Source: Escherichia phage UPWr_E1. From it: a stretch of 64,000 bases of DNA. The notes under the pieces were generated by a model. The model saw nothing but the letters and a program-made list of their open reading frames with translations, was not told the origin of the DNA and made no database searches. The stretch lies in the sequence record PP418985.1, one strand, 5' to 3'. Of this stretch, positions 4,598 through 29,226 are shown piece after piece; the stretch's first letter is position 1; the number at the start of each line of letters is the position of its first letter. The position numbers and the translations under genes are program-made.

Positions 4598-5101
4598 ATG
4601 CAATTTACACCAGAAGAACTTAACATCATTGATGAAGTGATGAACTCTAAAGAAAATATCGATATGTCGATCCTTAATGGATTGATTGAAAAGACTGAAC
4701 GGTTAGTGCATCATGAAGCCTTGTATCGCGGTGTGAGCAAAAGAGAAGGCCGTAAGCTGGATACCTTAATTGTAGGTGATTCTTTCGTTGTAGAGCGTCC
4801 TATGAGCTTTACGCCACTGCAATCAACAGCAGAGGACTTTGCAACCGATGTTTATGCAACAGGAAAGATTATTGCAATAAAACCTACCAAGCCTTGCATG
4901 AATTATTACGAACATGCTATTGATCGAGTGGTGTCTAAAGAGTATGACAATCCGACTACTCGACTGTCTTTGTATGCTATGTTGGCGGATGAGCGCGAGT
5001 GCATATACAAGACAGGGACGACCATGATCCTTGATGAGATCGAGGAAGTTTACGCATGTAACGGCGATCTGATAGAGATTTACAAATTTTCTTTAATTTA
5101 A
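4598..5101 (+). CDS. Hypothetical protein, candidate Mod-like ADP-ribosyltransferase
   Basis: 167 aa; ordered R (LYRGV), S-x-T (MSFTP) and E-x-E (DERECIY) motifs like R-S-E ADP-ribosyltransferases; sits where T4 carries modA/modB. Confidence 0.35.
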   Translation: MQFTPEELNIIDEVMNSKENIDMSILNGLIEKTERLVHHEALYRGVSKREGRKLDTLIVGDSFVVERPMSFTPLQSTAEDFATDVYATGKIIAIKPTKPCMNYYEHAIDRVVSKEYDNPTTRLSLYAMLADERECIYKTGTTMILDEIEEVYACNGDLIEIYKFSLI

Positions 5102-5162
5102 GTGTTGACAGCACAAACCAGATAGACAATAATACACACATACCAACTAAGGAGAATCAATT

Positions 5163-5918
5163 ATGAAACTGTTTGCTTTTAAATCTAACGAAGAATTGGC
5201 GCTGGTTGTTTTCCGTCTGAACTCTATCATGGCTGGCGCTTCTCGTCGTAACAAAGACTTCTCTATGAGCTTAGTCACTGTGCGTAACATCTATCGCCAG
5301 ACTCATTGCGCATATTCCGGTGAGGCTTTCGGTGAAGGTGATGACGGACTCTCCTTAGAGCGCATTGATTGCAATCTGGGATATGTTGATGGCAATGTAA
5401 TTCCGGTTAAACTGAAATACAATTCTTTCCGTGGTAATCATACTATCGAATCTCTTAAAGAGATCCAGGAACTAGGAACTAACGGTAAACTTTCTGATGA
5501 TGAAATTGCCCTACGTGCGAAGTACATCGAGTGGATCGAACTTAACGAGAATCGCATCAAAAATCAGGAAATGGCAATCGAAGAAAAGAAATTAGCAATC
5601 GAGCGCCACAAAAAGCACAACGAACCGGAGAAAGCAGATGCAGCCGAGCGAGCGATTAAAAATACTCTCTTCCGTATGGAAGAACGTTATCAGAAAATTG
5701 CAGATCTCAAGCAAGCCCTTAGCGAAATCAACAAGAAAGAGGAAAAACTTAAGGCTATTGCAAACAATACCGAAATCGTGCTAAAATATACCAGCGTTTT
5801 GATTGAATCTCTTTCTAAGTATGAGAACTTAACGCCAGCACAAAAAGAACGCGTGAAATACGGGCTTCCGATTGATGCGTCGTGGATTGAATTGATGAAA
5901 GCGAAGGTAGGTTTATAA
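5163..5918 (+). CDS. Hypothetical protein with degenerate HNH-like N-terminal region and coiled-coil C-terminal half
   Basis: 251 aa; CAYSG...ERIDCNLGY...GN resembles an inactivated HNH core; positional equivalent of T4 srd (about 250 aa). Confidence 0.3.
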   Translation: MKLFAFKSNEELALVVFRLNSIMAGASRRNKDFSMSLVTVRNIYRQTHCAYSGEAFGEGDDGLSLERIDCNLGYVDGNVIPVKLKYNSFRGNHTIESLKEIQELGTNGKLSDDEIALRAKYIEWIELNENRIKNQEMAIEEKKLAIERHKKHNEPEKADAAERAIKNTLFRMEERYQKIADLKQALSEINKKEEKLKAIANNTEIVLKYTSVLIESLSKYENLTPAQKERVKYGLPIDASWIELMKAKVGL

Positions 5919-19604: not shown

Positions 19605-20372
19605 ATGAAAAACCTGATCGCTGCTATCATTCTTTCTGCTACTGCTTTCGGTGCTAATGCTGCGTCCTTCGATTGCGCTAAAGCTACTACCAAATCAGAG
19701 AAGTTTATTTGCGCGAATGAGTCTATCTCCGAACTGGATTCTAAACTTCATGAAGTATATGTTAAAGCTGTTAAGATTGATCCGTCTCTGAAACAAGAGC
19801 AACGCAACTGGAATAAAACTGTTCGTGATACAATGATCAATATCGGGCAGATTCAGCCACTGGAGGCTGTATATAACGCTCAAATTCAAAACTTGATGAA
19901 TGTATTGCCTAAAGAAGAAACCTCGTCAGAAAGAGAATCAGAGGCTTCTGTGAAGGTTGAAGAACAACAACCGAAACAGGAAGAAAAAGTTGTAGTTCAA
20001 CCGAAGAAAGAAAAGAAACCACAAACCAGCGAGTTTACCTTGCAATGTGAATCTCACTTTAAATGGAAAAATATCGACGGAGCAAACACTAAGCCGAAAG
20101 CACAGCCATTTTATAAAGAGTACAATCCAGGTGAATTGACTCTGAAAGTAAAAGATGGTCAGATTATCCATTTTACATACATCGACAATAATGATGTGCA
20201 TAAGGCAAACACAAAACGAGTAGTTGATGACAACGGAATGATCGTTTTTAGCGGCTGGAAAGAAAATAAAAAGTATTATGTGTGGCGTGAACAGGATAGC
20301 GATATCATTCGCTTAGAAGTCCGCGAACAAGGATACTCTAAAATCTATGTTGACCAGTACGGGTGCAGATAA
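19605..20372 (+). CDS. Secreted protein with DUF1311/LprI-like (lysozyme-inhibitor-like) N-terminal domain
   Basis: Signal peptide MKNLIAAIILSATAFGANA; C..A.T..E..IC...D..L...Y ... Q.NW...RD pattern of DUF1311; Lys/Glu-rich linker. Confidence 0.5.
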   Translation: MKNLIAAIILSATAFGANAASFDCAKATTKSEKFICANESISELDSKLHEVYVKAVKIDPSLKQEQRNWNKTVRDTMINIGQIQPLEAVYNAQIQNLMNVLPKEETSSERESEASVKVEEQQPKQEEKVVVQPKKEKKPQTSEFTLQCESHFKWKNIDGANTKPKAQPFYKEYNPGELTLKVKDGQIIHFTYIDNNDVHKANTKRVVDDNGMIVFSGWKENKKYYVWREQDSDIIRLEVREQGYSKIYVDQYGCR

Positions 20373-21609: not shown

Positions 21610-21942
21610 ATGTTTAACTATGACAAATATGAATCATGGAAAGCGACCGAATTGAAAGAGGCAGCGCGGTTAATCACACCGCGTCTTTATCCGGTGTTGT
21701 TTAGCGCCGATAAAGTAACAAGGGAAGTAAACGAGGCGCTATCGGTTTTAGGTTATCTGATCGATAAAGTAGAGAAAACATCGGTATTCACAAATAGCGT
21801 AGAATATACCCGGTATAGAGTGTTTTTAGATTCCTTGCTCGTTGTTATTAAAGCACTAAATGATCATAACTACACCATGAACATGACGAAAATAATCGAC
21901 GAAGCAAGAATTATGACAGAGAATATTTTCGGTAAATTTTGA
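21610..21942 (+). CDS. Hypothetical protein (paralog of 22051-22380)
   Basis: C-terminal IDEARIMTENIFGKF matches VKDARKLAENVYGKF of the next gene. Confidence 0.45.
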   Translation: MFNYDKYESWKATELKEAARLITPRLYPVLFSADKVTREVNEALSVLGYLIDKVEKTSVFTNSVEYTRYRVFLDSLLVVIKALNDHNYTMNMTKIIDEARIMTENIFGKF

Positions 21943-22050: not shown

Positions 22051-22380
22051 GTGATTATGATCGAGTTTGAAATTGACAACTTTCACGAAAAAGCAGAAGA
22101 CCTAACCAAAATTTTGATTAGTCGAGGTGCATATAATACGAAAGATATTATAAAAGAAGTTAATGTAGCGATGGACGCGATCCGAAAGGAATTTAAACAT
22201 ATTTCAGCGATTGGAGAAAATGGTCATCTTGAAGATGTTGAGCTGGTAGCACTGCGACGCTATTACTTCTTTGTTGATTGCATCATTGATCTAGCTAAAA
22301 ATTATAGCCATTACATGAAAGATATTGTAAAAGATGCACGTAAGCTGGCAGAGAATGTTTACGGGAAGTTTCCAGAATGA
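22051..22380 (+). CDS. Hypothetical protein (paralog of 21610-21942)
   Basis: Shared C-terminal motif. Confidence 0.45.
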   Translation: MIMIEFEIDNFHEKAEDLTKILISRGAYNTKDIIKEVNVAMDAIRKEFKHISAIGENGHLEDVELVALRRYYFFVDCIIDLAKNYSHYMKDIVKDARKLAENVYGKFPE

Positions 22381-22625
22381 AATTAGAACAAGCGATTGTA
22401 TACTTTGAGATGGGCTATGATATTGCTCGTGTAGAGTGGGAAGATGGTGATTTTGTCCGATTGATTGATCTTCCAGAAACAGCTATTGCACTGGTCAAAG
22501 TAGAAAACGGCATACAACGAAATTATGCGTTCTCTGACGAAGACAAACAAGCCGATGACTGGTACGCTACCTGTTTTCATCATACAGCGTCAAAATGTGA
22601 TTCAGGGGCTTCTATGCGCCAATAA
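22377..22625 (+). CDS. Hypothetical protein
   Basis: 82-aa ORF followed by bidirectional terminator. Confidence 0.4.
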   Translation: MKLEQAIVYFEMGYDIARVEWEDGDFVRLIDLPETAIALVKVENGIQRNYAFSDEDKQADDWYATCFHHTASKCDSGASMRQ

Positions 22626-22632
22626 AAAAGAA

Positions 22633-22657
22633 GGGGAGGCCGAAAGGCTTCCCCTTT
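22633..22657. terminator. Bidirectional terminator between convergent early genes and holin
   Basis: AGGGGAGGC-CGAAAG-GCTTCCCCT with A-run before and T-run after. Confidence 0.65.
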
Positions 22658-22660
22658 AAG

Positions 22661-23317
22661 TTATCTAATCCTTCCGAGGATTCTGGCAGATTGATTGCAA
22701 AGAGTATCTAAATTCTCAATGTCAATATCTGGTTTATTCTTCCATGCAATGGCGATACTACCAGAATAGACATTATCGAGATTGAATATAGGACAAGAAT
22801 ACATGAATCCTATATCGATATTCTCTAATTTTTTCTCCCTCGACGGAATATACTGGAAATCTTTATCGGTAAAATAGGATTTACCTAAAAGATGCCTACG
22901 ATATTCTTCGCTCGTTTTATTGATAGGGAAGCCGCCTAAATTCTTTTCATCAATTGTATGTGGCAATTTTCCTTCGTATGCCACCAAATCAACGAAATAG
23001 TTTAGGTTTTTTGGACGAAAGCTAAAAACAGCAGAAAAATCGGCATCTGCCGACACATGAACTATCTGTAACTGCTCCTGTGCTGCATTATCAAAATTGC
23101 GGTCTTTTTCTACCTGGAGAACGTGAGCATAAGTCTCATAACGAGTTTCTTTATAAAGCGCAAACAACTCGTTTTTGCTATAAACGACAAATGCTAATAT
23201 AGACAACACAACGGCAGCAAAAACACGAAGTACGAGCAACTCCGTGCTTTTAGTTGTGAAAATAGCGCGCAGGACATTTGAGATAGCAAAGTCTTTCTCT
23301 TTTTCAGAAACTTGCAT
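22661..23317 (-). CDS. t: Holin (T4 gpt-type)
   Basis: 218 aa, same length as T4 holin T; single N-terminal TMD; blocks EQLQIVH, ADFSAVFSFRPKNLNYFVD, AYEGKLP, MYSCPIFNLDN, ARILGR. Confidence 0.85.
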   Translation of the reverse strand: MQVSEKEKDFAISNVLRAIFTTKSTELLVLRVFAAVVLSILAFVVYSKNELFALYKETRYETYAHVLQVEKDRNFDNAAQEQLQIVHVSADADFSAVFSFRPKNLNYFVDLVAYEGKLPHTIDEKNLGGFPINKTSEEYRRHLLGKSYFTDKDFQYIPSREKKLENIDIGFMYSCPIFNLDNVYSGSIAIAWKNKPDIDIENLDTLCNQSARILGRIR

Positions 23318-23351
23318 ATAATGCCCTAAAAATAACTATGACAGTGTACCA

Positions 23352-23591
23352 TTATTTAGGTACTTGACTATCACCCGTTTTATTCTGCTCGTTGCTATCT
23401 TCCGTCTGTTCTTTATTAAACTCCTTATAAAGTTCTTCCACAAAACGGTCATCAATTGGCGTATTGGTATATGCCGCAAGACGACGAGCGCAATAGAAGA
23501 AAATTTTAGTGAGCATCTTTTCACTAATTAACTTTGATAATAATTTCATTCCGAAACTAGACAAAGCACCAATGACGATATTATAGACCAT
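23352..23591 (-). CDS. Hypothetical small protein
   Basis: 79 aa, hydrophobic/amphipathic N-terminus, acidic C-terminus; between the paralog triplet and holin. Confidence 0.35.
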   Translation of the reverse strand: MVYNIVIGALSSFGMKLLSKLISEKMLTKIFFYCARRLAAYTNTPIDDRFVEELYKEFNKEQTEDSNEQNKTGDSQVPK

Positions 23592-23642
23592 AGCCGTTTC
23601 TCCTTAGTAGTTCCCTTCCGTGGGAGCTTTCCTTAATTCTTT

Positions 23643-23945
23643 TTAGCGGTTGCTCAAACGTCTATAGCGAAGATGGGAAATACCCCTGTTTGTAGTTACC
23701 GTGATCGTTACTCCCTGCGGCACAATACAAGAATGGATCTGTCCCCAATCATGACCCTTATGACTCCCAGACACACAAAAGCCATGCAAAAGCAATTCAG
23801 AGTCACCGCCACCACCACCAGAAGAATGAGCACCAAATGAAACCGTACCGAAAGCGTCTGGTGTCCATCCATTAGGGATATCAAACCAACCCTGATTCGC
23901 TTTACCAGCTTTATTACCTAAAACACCATCTACCCACCATCCCAT
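23643..23945 (-). CDS. Gly/His-rich small protein, paralog 3 of tandem triplet
   Basis: 100 aa; shares GWFxIPNGW, Gly-rich centre and C-terminal aromatic/basic tail with the next two ORFs. Confidence 0.55.
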   Translation of the reverse strand: MGWWVDGVLGNKAGKANQGWFDIPNGWTPDAFGTVSFGAHSSGGGGGDSELLLHGFCVSGSHKGHDWGQIHSCIVPQGVTITVTTNRGISHLRYRRLSNR

Positions 23946-24244
23946 TAATGCATTCTCCTAAATTGGAAGTGGTTTAAACTTCCTTTGCCAATACTAAAGC
24001 TGACAGTAGCGCCAGCACCAACTAAAGAACTAGCTCCCCAACTTCCTGCACTACCGGCGTGATGACCAGATTCAAGAGTACCGTTTACATATAGCTCTGC
24101 ATCTAGGTCATTACCAGCGGCTTCGGCATGAACAGATACAATACCGCATGAATCTGCCACCCAACCATTAGGAATACCAAACCATCCACCATTAGCATAA
24201 ATGCTAATAGCATTTGCCATTCTTCCAGCAATCCACCCAGCCAT
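23945..24244 (-). CDS. Gly/His-rich small protein, paralog 2 of tandem triplet
   Basis: 99 aa; ANGGWFGIPNGWVADSCGIVS; start overlaps upstream stop. Confidence 0.55.
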   Translation of the reverse strand: MAGWIAGRMANAISIYANGGWFGIPNGWVADSCGIVSVHAEAAGNDLDAELYVNGTLESGHHAGSAGSWGASSLVGAGATVSFSIGKGSLNHFQFRRMH

Positions 24245-24246
24245 AA

Positions 24247-24543
24247 TTAAAACTCCATAAATTTAAAGTATTCAATCCCACCGACACCACCATGACCAAA
24301 TGTAACAGTACATCCAGCAGGAACAAACGCATTAACGGTAAATCCCCAATCCCCGCCACCACGACGACGAGCGGCAACTACACCATCAACGGAAATATGC
24401 ATATCACCCCAACCATCATTAGCATTATGCCGCAAAACAGCAACCCCTGCACGACTGGGTACATATCCATTTGGAATATCAAAAACATGCCATTTTAAAG
24501 CATCAATTTTAGTATTAATTTCACTACCGACCCAATATCCCAT
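24247..24543 (-). CDS. Gly/His-rich small protein, paralog 1 of tandem triplet
   Basis: 98 aa; WHVFDIPNGYVPSRAGVAV; immediately downstream of gene 37. Confidence 0.55.
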   Translation of the reverse strand: MGYWVGSEINTKIDALKWHVFDIPNGYVPSRAGVAVLRHNANDGWGDMHISVDGVVAARRRGGGDWGFTVNAFVPAGCTVTFGHGGVGGIEYFKFMEF

Positions 24544-24581
24544 TTAAGATCCTTAGCGGGGAGAAATCCCCGCTATTTTAA

Positions 24582-27500
24582 TTAACCAAATAATTTAGCC
24601 TCAATTGCAGCAAGACGTTCACGAAGAATTTTATTTTCTTCTTTAAGAAGTGCAATTTCTTCTGTGTGTTCGTTGATTGCAGCAGTAATTAAACCAATAA
24701 CACCGTTATAGTTCAAACGAAGAAGGTTTTCACCAACCGGATCGCCTTCAACTAGTTCCGGTAAAATGGCTTGAACTTCTTGAGCAATCAAACCAGCATT
24801 AGGCTCCCATCGTTCGCTACCGTCTTCATTTACTCCGCGTTTTTGAAGATACATATAACCGTTAATTTTTGAAAGTGTCTGTGATGCATTTTCAAATTTA
24901 ACTAAATCCTTCTTCACGCGAATATCAGAACGGATATAAATGTCACGAACATATGTCGAATAGTTGTCATTCGCCTGAATCAAATGACCATGAGAAATAA
25001 TAGCTTTGTCAACTTCGGTCCATAAAGCAGCACCAACACTCCATAATCCAGGATGTTCTTGATGGAAGATACCCCATGAGGCAATATGTTGTCCGTTTGC
25101 CATCAGGTTAATACGTCCATCACCACCATGCGCTAAACCAGTGTCATTATCACCAATAGCAATTGATGCGCCTCCCCAAACCGGAACCGTACCAACACCA
25201 ATTCTAGGAGTTTGAATCAAAGGGCAATAAAACTGTCCGTTAGCATGAAACTCAAACACACCTTGTGGATGGTTAGCCCCTGGTGTAGCTTCCGCAGATC
25301 CAACACGAATAACAGCTTGTCCCCATGTTCCGGGAGTACGACGTAAGCCAAAGTCAGCCTTAGTAGAATATCCTTGACCTGTGATCTGGCTATGTCCTTT
25401 AATAAGTGGATAATAGCTATCTTGTCCAACACTACCCTGATCAATAAAGATAGGTGCTTCTTCGCGCCACTGTCCGTCCCATGAACCGGAATGATTAGCA
25501 ACCCACTGTGTAGCGTTTATATAGATGCGGTCTTTGCTAATACTAACATTATTAAAATTTTGTGGCGCAAGTGCTATCTCGCCATTATTCGTGATGTGTA
25601 TACCAGCCTGAGTTGCATAGCTATAAAATGCTAGCGAATTATCCGCACCACCTTTACCAATATACCAGTTATTATTTCCGCCTATATCACCGCGAATATG
25701 CAAAGAATTGCTAGCGGTAGTCGATAGTACAATCGCATCACCCGGACGTTTAATGGTTAGTCGACCGTCGGATTCAACTTCACCAAAGAACTTAGTTTTA
25801 ATTGCACCCGTCGCTAAAGTACGTTCAGTGGAAAAATGAGCGCCTTTGCTATCTTCTAACTGAATAATGTTATCACGAGCATTATTGCTATCACCCCAAT
25901 GATTAAACCGGAAATAATCGCGTGATTGCTTACCACCCGCTTCAAACGTCAGCGTACCTTTACTTAAATTAACATCACCACCAAAGGTAGCAGCAAGCGA
26001 ACTACTTTTTAATCTTAAAATATCAGCACCGCTAGTTCCACCTAAAGTAACATCACCAGTTTTGAATTGATAACGGAAAGGTCTATTTGTGTTAAAGTTT
26101 CCATCTTGATCATTTTCGTCGGTGGAAAGAATATAAAGACTTTCACCATCATTACGGAAAATTGTACCAAAATTACCGCCATACATTTTAAATGCATTGG
26201 ATGAACGGAATTTAACTTCTGTGTTAAAAGTTGTAGTTGATTTAAACGTTGTTGAACTACCGAAGTTAACAACACCATTAAAATCTTGTTGTGCTGTCCA
26301 TGTGTGGCGACCATCTTCCACAACAATACGGCGAACGGTATTAGTTCTATTTCCCGGATTACCAGCTACACGAACGACAAAATAACGGTAGTTAGCTTGT
26401 GACACAGTACCACGCCAAACCTGAACGGTGCGACCTGTTCCGGTATGCTCACTAGGTCCAACGGATAACATAATTAAGTTACCGTCAATCGTTCCCCAAT
26501 CCATATTTGCTGGCATGTTCTTGACTTTATTCAGCGGTACGCTATACATCCCGCCAGGAACAAAATCAAATGTTTGCCAGTCTAGCTCTGTTAATTGAGC
26601 TTTAACACCACCCATACCCAAAGTAATTGGCAGAGAATAAGATGTATATACTTCGTTCCATGTACCCCAAACGCCATTAGTATATGCGCGCTCAAAAATA
26701 CGTCCGCGAGTAGTTGCACCTGTTCCGGCAGTAGTAAATTTTTGGAAAATAGCACCACCAGAAGCACGCTGTTTAACTTCCAGCAAACCAACAATAACAG
26801 GCGGCAAACCTTCACCTGTAGGGCAGTTAATAACGGCATCAGTGCCTAAAATATTATATAAACCTGGAGTTTTAAAATCATTCAGGTTTCCGTCATAGAA
26901 AGTCGCTGGTGTGACATTACCTACTTGTTGCCACGGTCCCCATTTAGGCGCAGAAGCATCCCACGCAGCAGCAAGACAACGAGTATAAACAACACCAAAT
27001 CTGGTCGTATATCTCTGTGTGCGAGAATATTTTCCACCTTCATATACTTCTAAAAGTCCTTGAGCGGACGATCCTTCTTCTGGGAAATTTCTGTCAAAGG
27101 TAGCAATGGTATTTGAACTATTCCGCCACAAACCAAAATGTTCCGCGCCACCTAGATCATTAAGATCAATTGTGGTTGACAATGGACGAGTACCGGATTG
27201 AATATTTCTCCACACACCCCACGGACCATCAACACCATTCCATTTAGCAGACAAAGAACGAATATAAACATTTCCGTATCTAGTTGTATATCTCTGAGTT
27301 CCAGCAAATTGCCCAGCCGTAAACACTTCCAATACACCAACAGCATTTTCTTCTGGGAATTTATTTGCAGGTTGCGCATTTGTTGAAGTAGATTTAGACC
27401 AAATGCCAGTAAATTTACCAGTCGGTCCATAATTATCTAAATTTGCATCAGTTGGCAATTCGCCGCGAAAGTGTCCCAAAGTAATTACATTATTGCTGTC

Positions 27501-27626
27501 ATCTTTTGTATATAGTTCTCGATCCGCTAGGTTAATAGCAAGTTCACCCGGAGTTAGAATATTCGCATCCGGCTTGCGACCTGCCGTACTTGTTCTTTTA
27601 AATTGGATTCTCTGTAAATCTGCCAT
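24582..27626 (-). CDS. 37: Long tail fibre distal subunit (gp37-like) with C-terminal intramolecular chaperone domain
   Basis: 1014 aa; N-terminus MADLQRIQFKRTSTAGRKP...GELAINL matches T4 gp37; C-terminal SDIRVKKDL...NYNGVIGLITAAI...coiled coil is the S74-type autoproteolytic chaperone signature. Confidence 0.85.
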   Translation of the reverse strand: MADLQRIQFKRTSTAGRKPDANILTPGELAINLADRELYTKDDSNNVITLGHFRGELPTDANLDNYGPTGKFTGIWSKSTSTNAQPANKFPEENAVGVLEVFTAGQFAGTQRYTTRYGNVYIRSLSAKWNGVDGPWGVWRNIQSGTRPLSTTIDLNDLGGAEHFGLWRNSSNTIATFDRNFPEEGSSAQGLLEVYEGGKYSRTQRYTTRFGVVYTRCLAAAWDASAPKWGPWQQVGNVTPATFYDGNLNDFKTPGLYNILGTDAVINCPTGEGLPPVIVGLLEVKQRASGGAIFQKFTTAGTGATTRGRIFERAYTNGVWGTWNEVYTSYSLPITLGMGGVKAQLTELDWQTFDFVPGGMYSVPLNKVKNMPANMDWGTIDGNLIMLSVGPSEHTGTGRTVQVWRGTVSQANYRYFVVRVAGNPGNRTNTVRRIVVEDGRHTWTAQQDFNGVVNFGSSTTFKSTTTFNTEVKFRSSNAFKMYGGNFGTIFRNDGESLYILSTDENDQDGNFNTNRPFRYQFKTGDVTLGGTSGADILRLKSSSLAATFGGDVNLSKGTLTFEAGGKQSRDYFRFNHWGDSNNARDNIIQLEDSKGAHFSTERTLATGAIKTKFFGEVESDGRLTIKRPGDAIVLSTTASNSLHIRGDIGGNNNWYIGKGGADNSLAFYSYATQAGIHITNNGEIALAPQNFNNVSISKDRIYINATQWVANHSGSWDGQWREEAPIFIDQGSVGQDSYYPLIKGHSQITGQGYSTKADFGLRRTPGTWGQAVIRVGSAEATPGANHPQGVFEFHANGQFYCPLIQTPRIGVGTVPVWGGASIAIGDNDTGLAHGGDGRINLMANGQHIASWGIFHQEHPGLWSVGAALWTEVDKAIISHGHLIQANDNYSTYVRDIYIRSDIRVKKDLVKFENASQTLSKINGYMYLQKRGVNEDGSERWEPNAGLIAQEVQAILPELVEGDPVGENLLRLNYNGVIGLITAAINEHTEEIALLKEENKILRERLAAIEAKLFG

Positions 27627-29218: not shown

Positions 29219-29226
29219 TATTTATA
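29219..29226 (-). promoter_or_regulatory. T4-type late promoter (TATAAATA) for gene 36
   Basis: Exact TATAAATA on the minus strand about 35 nt upstream of the gene 36 start codon. Confidence 0.55.

Follow-up and report, generated by a model that had tools for sequence, protein, structure and literature searches.

Three small genes behind a self-cleaving tail fibre gene of Escherichia phage UPWr_E1 probably encode a new, three-part fibre-tip adhesin

In RB49 and most T-even-like phages, the self-cleaving C-terminal chaperone of the distal long-tail-fibre protein gp37 is removed, after which one gp38 monomer caps each fibre (PMC9569957). The gp38 protein of phage S16 is attached by three conserved tryptophan (Trp) residues, each of which forms the tip of a helix and is accommodated in one of three symmetry-equivalent pockets of gp37 (PMC6851490; PDB 6F45). 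We have analyzed a stretch of 64,000 nucleotides (referred to as the window) of Escherichia phage UPWr_E1 (PP418985.1), a Krischvirus, i.e., an RB49/GEC-3S-like relative of the T-even phages that infects Escherichia coli. Its closest record is vB_EcoM_G2248 (G2248; 93.6% identity over positions 22600 to 24700). In the window, three small paralogous genes, termed P1, P2, and P3 according to their position, follow gene 37. Judged from sequence comparisons, these genes probably encode a new, three-part fibre-tip adhesin. The reading to which we lean is that their products are late proteins of the virion that, as subunits of a small knob, cap the long tail fibre at its distal end and replace gp38 without being homologous to it.

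An earlier note on this DNA had described three tandem paralogs at positions 23643 to 24543, in the slot normally held by gene 38, that is, after gene 37 and before the holin gene t. Both points were borne out. The coordinates are exactly those of three genes on the minus strand, and the flanking genes were identified as gene 37 and gene t by their matches to PHROG and to the Pfam family Phage_holin_T, respectively (Table 1). The order in the direction of transcription is gene 37, P1, P2, P3, an open reading frame (ORF) of 79 amino acids, and t. Pairwise BLASTP comparisons of P1, P2, and P3 revealed identities of 30 to 36% (E values of 2e-8 to 2e-14), and a family hidden Markov model (HMM) matched each of them with an E value of ~1e-37 to 1e-38. 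The length of 99 amino acids attributed to all three proteins applies to P2, whereas P1 and P3 comprise 98 and 100 residues, respectively. Similarly, stop and start codons overlap at the P2/P3 junction, where they share 1 nucleotide (TAATG), but P1 and P2 are 2 nucleotides apart. Each of the three genes is preceded by a Shine-Dalgarno sequence. The proposed WxxIPNGW block was recovered as F[DG]IPNG[WY], preceded by W or V, and several glycines are invariant. Trp4 is conserved in all of the 24 enterobacterial sequences aligned and is also kept in the aligned P3 orthologs. As to the composition, which had been called Gly/His rich, the content of glycine is indeed high (17 to 19%), whereas that of histidine (4 to 6%) is not. 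A basic aromatic C terminus is present in P2 (FQFRRMH) and P3 (LRYRRLSNR) but not in P1, which ends with YFKFMEF and contains RRRGGGDWG in place of the SGxH of P2 and P3. Characteristic of P3 are the motifs GGGGGDSEL and SGSHKGHDWG…HSC, and the P2 orthologs of Salmonella and others have N-terminal extensions (114 to 129 amino acids).

The family is small. A HMMER search of 1.84 billion representative proteins resulted in 20 matches, ~16 of which (clusters) were real; all of these are free-standing proteins of 97 to 129 amino acids, and no version fused to a fibre was found in this set. Among the remaining matches, the very long proteins P0041, P0045, P0055, and P0056 proved on reading to be repeat artefacts (e.g., ankyrin-like eukaryotic repeats), and P0053 (3591 amino acids, 21 stretches), the sequence of which was not read, looks like the same artefact. 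In 50,697 phage records the family occurs only in G2248, G37-3, and KFS-EC. The cassette is present in 24 of 5,426 complete E. coli genomes (~0.4%), where it is always annotated as three hypothetical proteins; a scan of species-representative genomes retrieved no family members, and a metagenome scan retrieved just four additional close relatives. No description of these genes was found in the searchable literature. We regard the family, the three-gene arrangement of which is unusual, as undescribed and, with moderate confidence, as forming a separately encoded fibre-tip cap.

In every complete locus, the genes form a tandem triplet of fixed order that directly follows a fibre gene ending in a Peptidase_S74 (S74) domain, and this applies to six lineages. 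(i) The Krischvirus loci are those of the window, G2248, and G37-3. (ii) In siphovirus prophages of E. coli the order is portal, protease-capsid fusion, fibre, triplet, tail tube, tape measure, and J-like tip. (iii) A siphovirus prophage of Salmonella has the triplet after an S74 fibre. (iv) In a T7-like Teseptimavirus, the terminase of which shares 99% identity with its counterpart in phage Ebrios, gp17 (a T7_tail N terminus combined with S74) is followed by the triplet and a holin. (v) Two unplaced metagenomic lineages likewise carry an S74 fibre and the triplet. The partner fibres of L005 to L009, L020, L023, and L025 all possess the C-terminal S74 domain and the cleavage motif. The gene 3' of the triplet varies and may be a holin, a tail tube, or a second fibre gene, so that the S74 fibre is the only constant partner. 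These contexts argue against P1 to P3 being accessory "moron" genes unrelated to the fibre that act in superinfection exclusion, in receptor masking after lysis, or as lysis factors like XepA of PBSX and YomS of SPbeta. We consider this explanation very improbable. In the prophages the triplet lies between fibre and tail tube genes, distant from the lysis genes; fibre tip and triplet recombine as one unit, as detailed below; and a strictly virulent phage has retained the triplet under purifying selection. Furthermore, P1 to P3 contain no signal peptide, lipobox, or transmembrane segment and have no match in PADLOC, and their fold match to XepA was no better than those to generic jelly rolls.

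The partner fibre in the window, gp37, matches the Pfam families Gp34_trimer and Peptidase_S74 and carries the S74 cleavage motif DIYIRSDIRVKK, which corresponds to the pattern (Y/F)xRS↓DxRxK. Based on the known mechanism of the S74 family, self-cleavage is predicted to occur before Ser900 (…DIYIR↓SDIRVKK…). The segment of residues 640 to 900 is of the T2/Mosigvirus type, which is normally accompanied by a gp38 adhesin, and shares 60 to 63% identity with gp37 from numerous Mosig- and Tequatroviruses that possess gp38. Two candidate sequence determinants of triplet-bearing fibres were rejected: the motif EENK[LI]LRERLAAIEAKL, which covers the last ~20 residues of the chaperone domain, accompanies the triplet in E. 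coli but is not kept in the Salmonella, T7-like, and other lineages, and the motif preceding the cleavage site does not separate triplet-bearing from gp38-bearing fibres.

Three comparisons revealed that the triplet alternates with gp38. (i) In the Mosigvirus SF, gp37 shares 44 to 50 of 60 residues with gp37 of the window in the region of the cleavage site and along the S74 domain, and a gp38 ORF follows. (ii) The fibre of prophage L005 is 82% identical to gp37 of Krischvirus Skers, which precedes an annotated gp38-type adhesin. (iii) Prophages L029 and L030 are 93 to 96% identical to the triplet-bearing prophage L008 on either side of a swap; between these flanks, a Krischvirus-derived fibre tip and a gp38 (Pfam Gp38_N and GP38) replace P1, P2, and part of P3. 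Because of these comparisons, we regard gp38 and the triplet as mutually exclusive, interchangeable occupants of a single slot and, judged from the same loci, as having passed from virulent to temperate phages and vice versa. A homology of the two modules, the search for which the earlier note had recommended, was not detected: the alignment of the triplet family with gp38 of Skers by hhalign had a probability of 0.14%, and there was no match to Pfam GP38 or Gp38_N.

Two observations concern the annotation and the junctions of these loci. The gp38 ORF of SF (NC_055749; positions 3630 to 4421 of L028) comprises 263 amino acids when read from an upstream TTG, with gp38 beginning at an internal Met (MAVEGPWVGW…); it is unannotated in the RefSeq record, in which part of it is covered by a short "tail fiber protein" annotated on the reverse strand. 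In L029 and L030, an ORF at positions 5001 to 5213 (P0030) consists of the first nine codons of the Krischvirus 79-amino-acid ORF fused to a C-terminal P3 remnant.

The nature of the alternating gene also bears on the possibility that P1 to P3 are nonvirion assembly or maturation factors for S74 fibres, comparable to T4 gp38, gp57A, or Tfa, which would assist, for example, the folding of the tip or the release of the cleaved chaperone. In accordance with this alternative, the T4 gene in this slot encodes a chaperone, P1 to P3 are small and, having no signal peptide, cytoplasmic, and they are tightly linked to the S74 domain, the one feature common to all partner fibres. We nevertheless consider it unlikely. 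S74 fibres fold with their own intramolecular chaperone, and near-identical fibres exist without the triplet, accompanied either by gp38 (SF and Skers) or by nothing (GEC-3S). Since the triplet is not needed for fibre assembly in the KFS-EC and GEC-3S backgrounds (see below), a role as a chaperone is argued against. The other occupant of the slot is the structural adhesin gp38 rather than a T4-type chaperone. Moreover, P1 to P3 matched no fibre-chaperone family in Pfam, PHROG, or NCBIfam, and their predicted fold is typical of terminal heads and not of known fibre chaperones.

Fibre tip and triplet appear to move together. The cassette delimited by blastn, which contains the last ~60 nucleotides of gene 37, a hairpin, and P1 to P3 and which ends at the P3 stop codon (Table 1), is 88 to 89% identical to the E. 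coli prophage loci L005, L007, L008, and L018 over exactly that span, whereas prophage L006 has the whole distal third of gp37 and the triplet in common with the window (81% identity). Compared with triplet-less relatives, homology of the Krischvirus locus breaks inside the fibre gene and resumes at ~23645, at the P3 stop. The Teseptimavirus provides a parallel: in comparison with Ebrios, its homology is lost at ~codon 150 of gp17 and is regained at the P3 stop codon. These boundaries indicate that, in both Krischvirus and Teseptimavirus, distal fibre and triplet form a single replacement unit for the distal fibre. The GC content of the triplet is 45%, against ~38% in the flanks, and is uninformative as to the direction of transfer, since glycine codons explain much of the excess.

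The structures of P3 and P1 were predicted with AlphaFold2 at mean predicted local distance difference test (pLDDT) values of 80.5 and 80.1, respectively, and both models consist of an N-terminal helix and a confidently modeled beta-sandwich of seven to eight strands. The best fold matches among solved structures include C1q, collagen VIII NC1, adiponectin, TNF-family ligands, BclA, and PRD1 P5, all of which are trimeric heads of fibrous proteins. These matches indicate a fold class and not ancestry, because equally high scores were obtained with a carbohydrate-binding module and a capsid protein of a microvirus. A Foldseek search of predicted viral structures gave weak matches, and most of the named ones were tail-fibre, C1q-domain, or collagen-like proteins. 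At the sequence level, no matches to P1 to P3 were found in Pfam (E value of ≤1), including the C1q (PF00386) and TNF (PF00229) families, or in NCBIfam; a profile search of PDB sequences retrieved nothing below an E value of 0.06, and the only match in PHROGs was a weak one, between P1 and the C terminus of PHROG 18834 (function not assigned; E value of 5e-4).

The fold also bears on the analogy with the metal-binding tip of T4 gp37 that had been drawn from the Gly/His-rich segments. This analogy was not supported, given the beta-sandwich fold, the modest histidine content, and the lack of a repeated HxH motif. Orthologs of P3 share an invariant polar cluster (GGDSEL, SGSH, DWG, and HSC) that is present in neither P1 nor P2. 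The cluster could be a subunit-specific ligand or metal site and is the sole place left for the metal-binding idea. The GDSEL sequence of P3 was also considered as an SGNH-esterase signature, which was rejected, as the confident model is a beta-sandwich.

In a neighbor-joining tree constructed without support values, the position-1 proteins of all lineages form one clade, from which we conclude that the triplication is old and that the gene order has been retained. The ratio of nonsynonymous to synonymous substitution rates (dN/dS) was 0.07 to 0.16 per gene (0.07 to 0.14 for P2) in comparisons with orthologs of 75 to 93% nucleotide identity, which indicates that purifying selection acts on each of the three genes. 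It is therefore excluded that they are what is left of a larger, degraded gene, a case that the earlier note had named as refuting its proposal, and redundant recent copies are argued against. In consequence, the suggestion that the genes are host-range modules diversified by recent, redundant duplication does not agree with an ancient triplication of fixed order, with the position-1 clade, and with the selection observed. Taken together, the fixed order, the position-1 clade, the coupled or overlapping junctions, the Shine-Dalgarno sequences, and the dN/dS values favour an obligate co-function, and the fixed three-gene architecture suggests that P1, P2, and P3 probably form a 1:1:1 heterotrimer.

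A different stoichiometry would result if each paralog formed its own homotrimeric cap and the three caps competed for the fibre tips, giving rise to virions with mixed receptor specificities, i.e., a multivalent host-range module. In favour of such caps, heads of the C1q/TNF type are homotrimers as a rule, the differences between the paralogs are largest in the loops, and the linkage to the fibre and the alternation with gp38 fit them as well as they fit a heterotrimer. Independent adhesins, however, should vary in number and order, whereas all complete loci, whether of myo-, sipho-, or podoviruses, have exactly three genes in the same order, and their position-1 proteins form one clade. Intact loci with fewer than three family members were not found, the partial loci of KFS-EC and P0030 being decay products, and the orthologs are conserved rather than hypervariable. 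Separate homotrimeric caps thus appear to have a low probability.

We propose that the heterotrimer would act as follows. Assisted by its C-terminal S74 chaperone, gp37 would trimerise, and cleavage before Ser900 would then remove the chaperone and expose a threefold-symmetric fibre base. One copy each of P1, P2, and P3 would assemble on this base into a pseudo-threefold, C1q/TNF-like beta-sandwich head. Each chain would contribute an N-terminal helix that starts with Trp4, mirroring the docking of the three Trp residues of gp38 in the gp37 pockets; the triplet proteins begin with MGYWV…, MAGWI…, and MGWWV…, and the Trp segments of gp38 read PGWIGSSA, QRWMSQAA, and PCWMSQFA. The resulting knob may contribute to receptor recognition or host range. 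Presence in the virion, docking by Trp helices, and receptor binding are what we infer for P1 to P3 from the comparisons reported here. The role at the fibre tip, which the earlier note had raised as that of accessory adhesin-tip or fibre-decoration proteins, received indirect support from the S74 linkage in six lineages, the alternation with gp38, the recombination unit, and the fold, and we hold it with moderate confidence; our confidence in the heterotrimer and in the Trp plugs is lower. In its most specific form, the proposal is that of a "split" adhesin, a 1:1:1 C1q-like heterotrimer that inserts one Trp-tipped helix into each gp37 pocket, that is portable across the self-cleaving fibres of myo-, sipho-, and podoviruses, and that rivals gp38 for the docking site. 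We put this forward as tentative.

A number of observations weigh against a capping knob of this kind. (i) The N-terminal helices are modeled with low confidence (pLDDT of 52 to 59). (ii) Trp4 is replaced by Leu or lost in divergent members, namely, at positions 1 and 3 of the T7-like locus and at position 1 of L025. (iii) In the tree, positions 2 and 3, which are sister groups, are poorly separated for the most divergent loci. (iv) The orthologs vary only modestly when set against the hypervariable loops of gp38, which is unlike a fast-evolving receptor-binding tip. (v) In KFS-EC, the triplet is reduced to a chimera of P1 and P3 produced by deletion, and neither the triplet nor gp38 is present behind the related S74 fibres of GEC-3S-type phages; the triplet is therefore dispensable for these fibres. 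The chimera, annotated in KFS-EC as a hypothetical protein of 107 amino acids (L002, positions 5151 to 5474), consists of P1 residues ~1 to 87 and the middle of P3, the remaining C terminus of P3 being out of frame, and KFS-EC is a viable isolate.

With respect to expression, the earlier note had seen no promoter between gene 37 and the triplet, and our search agrees with it: there was no exact match to the T4-type late promoter TATAAATA from position 29226 to the holin gene. Because the triplet has no late promoter of its own, P1 to P3 are probably co-transcribed with gene 37. A hairpin is located in the intergenic region of gene 37 and P1 (Table 1). It has no U-run on the mRNA strand and carries a putative-terminator annotation in G2248; hairpins are found at the equivalent site of the E. 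coli, Salmonella, and L025 loci, and none is present in the T7-like locus. It may be an attenuator or a stability element, and one could speculate that it reduces expression toward the 1:3 ratio expected with respect to gp37. The stem is identical in the window and in the prophages (~7975 to 7995 in L008), and the 4-nucleotide loops, TTTC in the window and GAAA in the prophages, are reverse complements. The hairpin of L025 is unrelated and followed by a T-run, and that of L020 overlaps the Shine-Dalgarno sequence.

Table 1. Features of the fibre-tip locus in the window
Feature	Position	Strand	Characteristics
gp37-like distal long-tail-fibre subunit	24582-27626	-	1014 amino acids; PHROG 1699 "long tail fiber protein distal subunit", E value of 2.5e-186
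Peptidase_S74 intramolecular chaperone domain of gp37	24582-24929	-	Residues 900-1014; PF13884 at residues 900-959, 44.2 bits (cut-off 22)
Hairpin	24554-24575	-	9 bp, GC rich; between gene 37 stop and P1 start; dG of -16.5 kcal/mol, z of -2.0
P1, position-1 paralog	24247-24543	-	98 amino acids
P2, position-2 paralog	23945-24244	-	99 amino acids
P3, position-3 paralog	23643-23945	-	100 amino acids
Mobile cassette	23642-24641	-	Last ~60 nucleotides of gene 37, hairpin, and P1 to P3; ends at P3 stop (blastn)
79-amino-acid ORF	23352-23591	-	PHROG 402, function not assigned
Holin t	22661-23317	-	Pfam Phage_holin_T, E value of 4.9e-61

Several neighbouring features of the window were recorded as well. 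The 79-amino-acid ORF has a hydrophobic N terminus and, in each of the Krischviruses examined, is conserved at this site between t and the fibre module. At ~22630 to 22660, a plus-strand block of small ORFs converges with the minus-strand holin gene, and a bidirectional terminator is annotated there in G2248 and GEC-3S. Two plus-strand ORFs, at 21610 to 21942 (110 amino acids) and 22051 to 22380 (109 amino acids), are paralogs with 37% identity over the C-terminal 43 residues (E value of 8e-8), and neither matches a known family. At 19605 to 20372 on the plus strand, a protein of 255 amino acids with a signal-peptide-like N terminus matches Pfam LprI (lysozyme inhibitor, DUF1311) with an E value of 4.7e-5, just above the cut-off; this apparently secreted, LprI-type protein is encoded amid the early-gene block of a virulent phage.

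If our proposal is correct, phages possess a second tip module that is unrelated to gp38 and much smaller, and a function can be assigned to the triple hypothetical proteins of ~0.4% of the complete E. coli genomes and of Salmonella prophages. For phage engineers, the module would be a new, compact host-range cassette that is transferred jointly with the end of the fibre and is interchangeable with gp38 after the same fibre genes. Receptor prediction from the genome sequence would be incomplete for phages that bear it. Should the 1:1:1 stoichiometry hold, it would provide a bacterial-virus example of a heterotrimeric C1q-like head. The loci also document, at single-codon resolution, that genes flow directly between strictly virulent phages of the T-even and T7 types and temperate prophages of siphoviruses.

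Among known systems, the gp38 adhesin of the T2, T6, S16, and RB49 type (PF05268 and PF21721) occupies the same slot, after an S74-ending gene 37 and before t. Where gp38 docks by three Trp-tipped helices of one chain, each triplet protein has a single predicted N-terminal helix with a conserved Trp, modeled at the low confidence given above. The proteins themselves differ: gp38 is one chain of ~260 residues with a polyglycine-II sandwich, glycine-rich motifs, and hypervariable segments, whereas the triplet consists of three beta-sandwich chains of ~100 residues and is not confined to T-even phages, since it was also found in a T7-like phage and in prophages of siphoviruses. The chaperones T4 gp38 and Tfa are, like P1 to P3, small proteins encoded directly after a distal fibre gene, but they have no sequence match to the triplet, the partner fibres of which contain an intramolecular chaperone and the slot of which alternates with the adhesin-type gp38. 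XepA and YomS, of the lysis cassettes of PBSX and SPbeta, share with the triplet neither a specific fold likeness nor the location in a lysis cassette. PRD1 P5, Bacillus BclA, and the C1q-domain or collagen-like phage fibres belong to a similar fold class, and the terminal-head role proposed here is the same; however, the knobs of all these proteins are homotrimeric and part of the fibre polypeptide, whereas the triplet domain is free-standing. To the C1q/TNF superfamily as a whole, the triplet shows a likeness in predicted fold class only, with a sandwich of ~80 instead of ~130 residues, identities of 6 to 12%, and no fused collagen stalk. Heterotrimeric heads do occur in this superfamily, as in lymphotoxin alpha1-beta2, and conceptually the triplet comes closest to the head of C1q itself, in which three paralogs, the products of clustered genes, form a heterotrimer.

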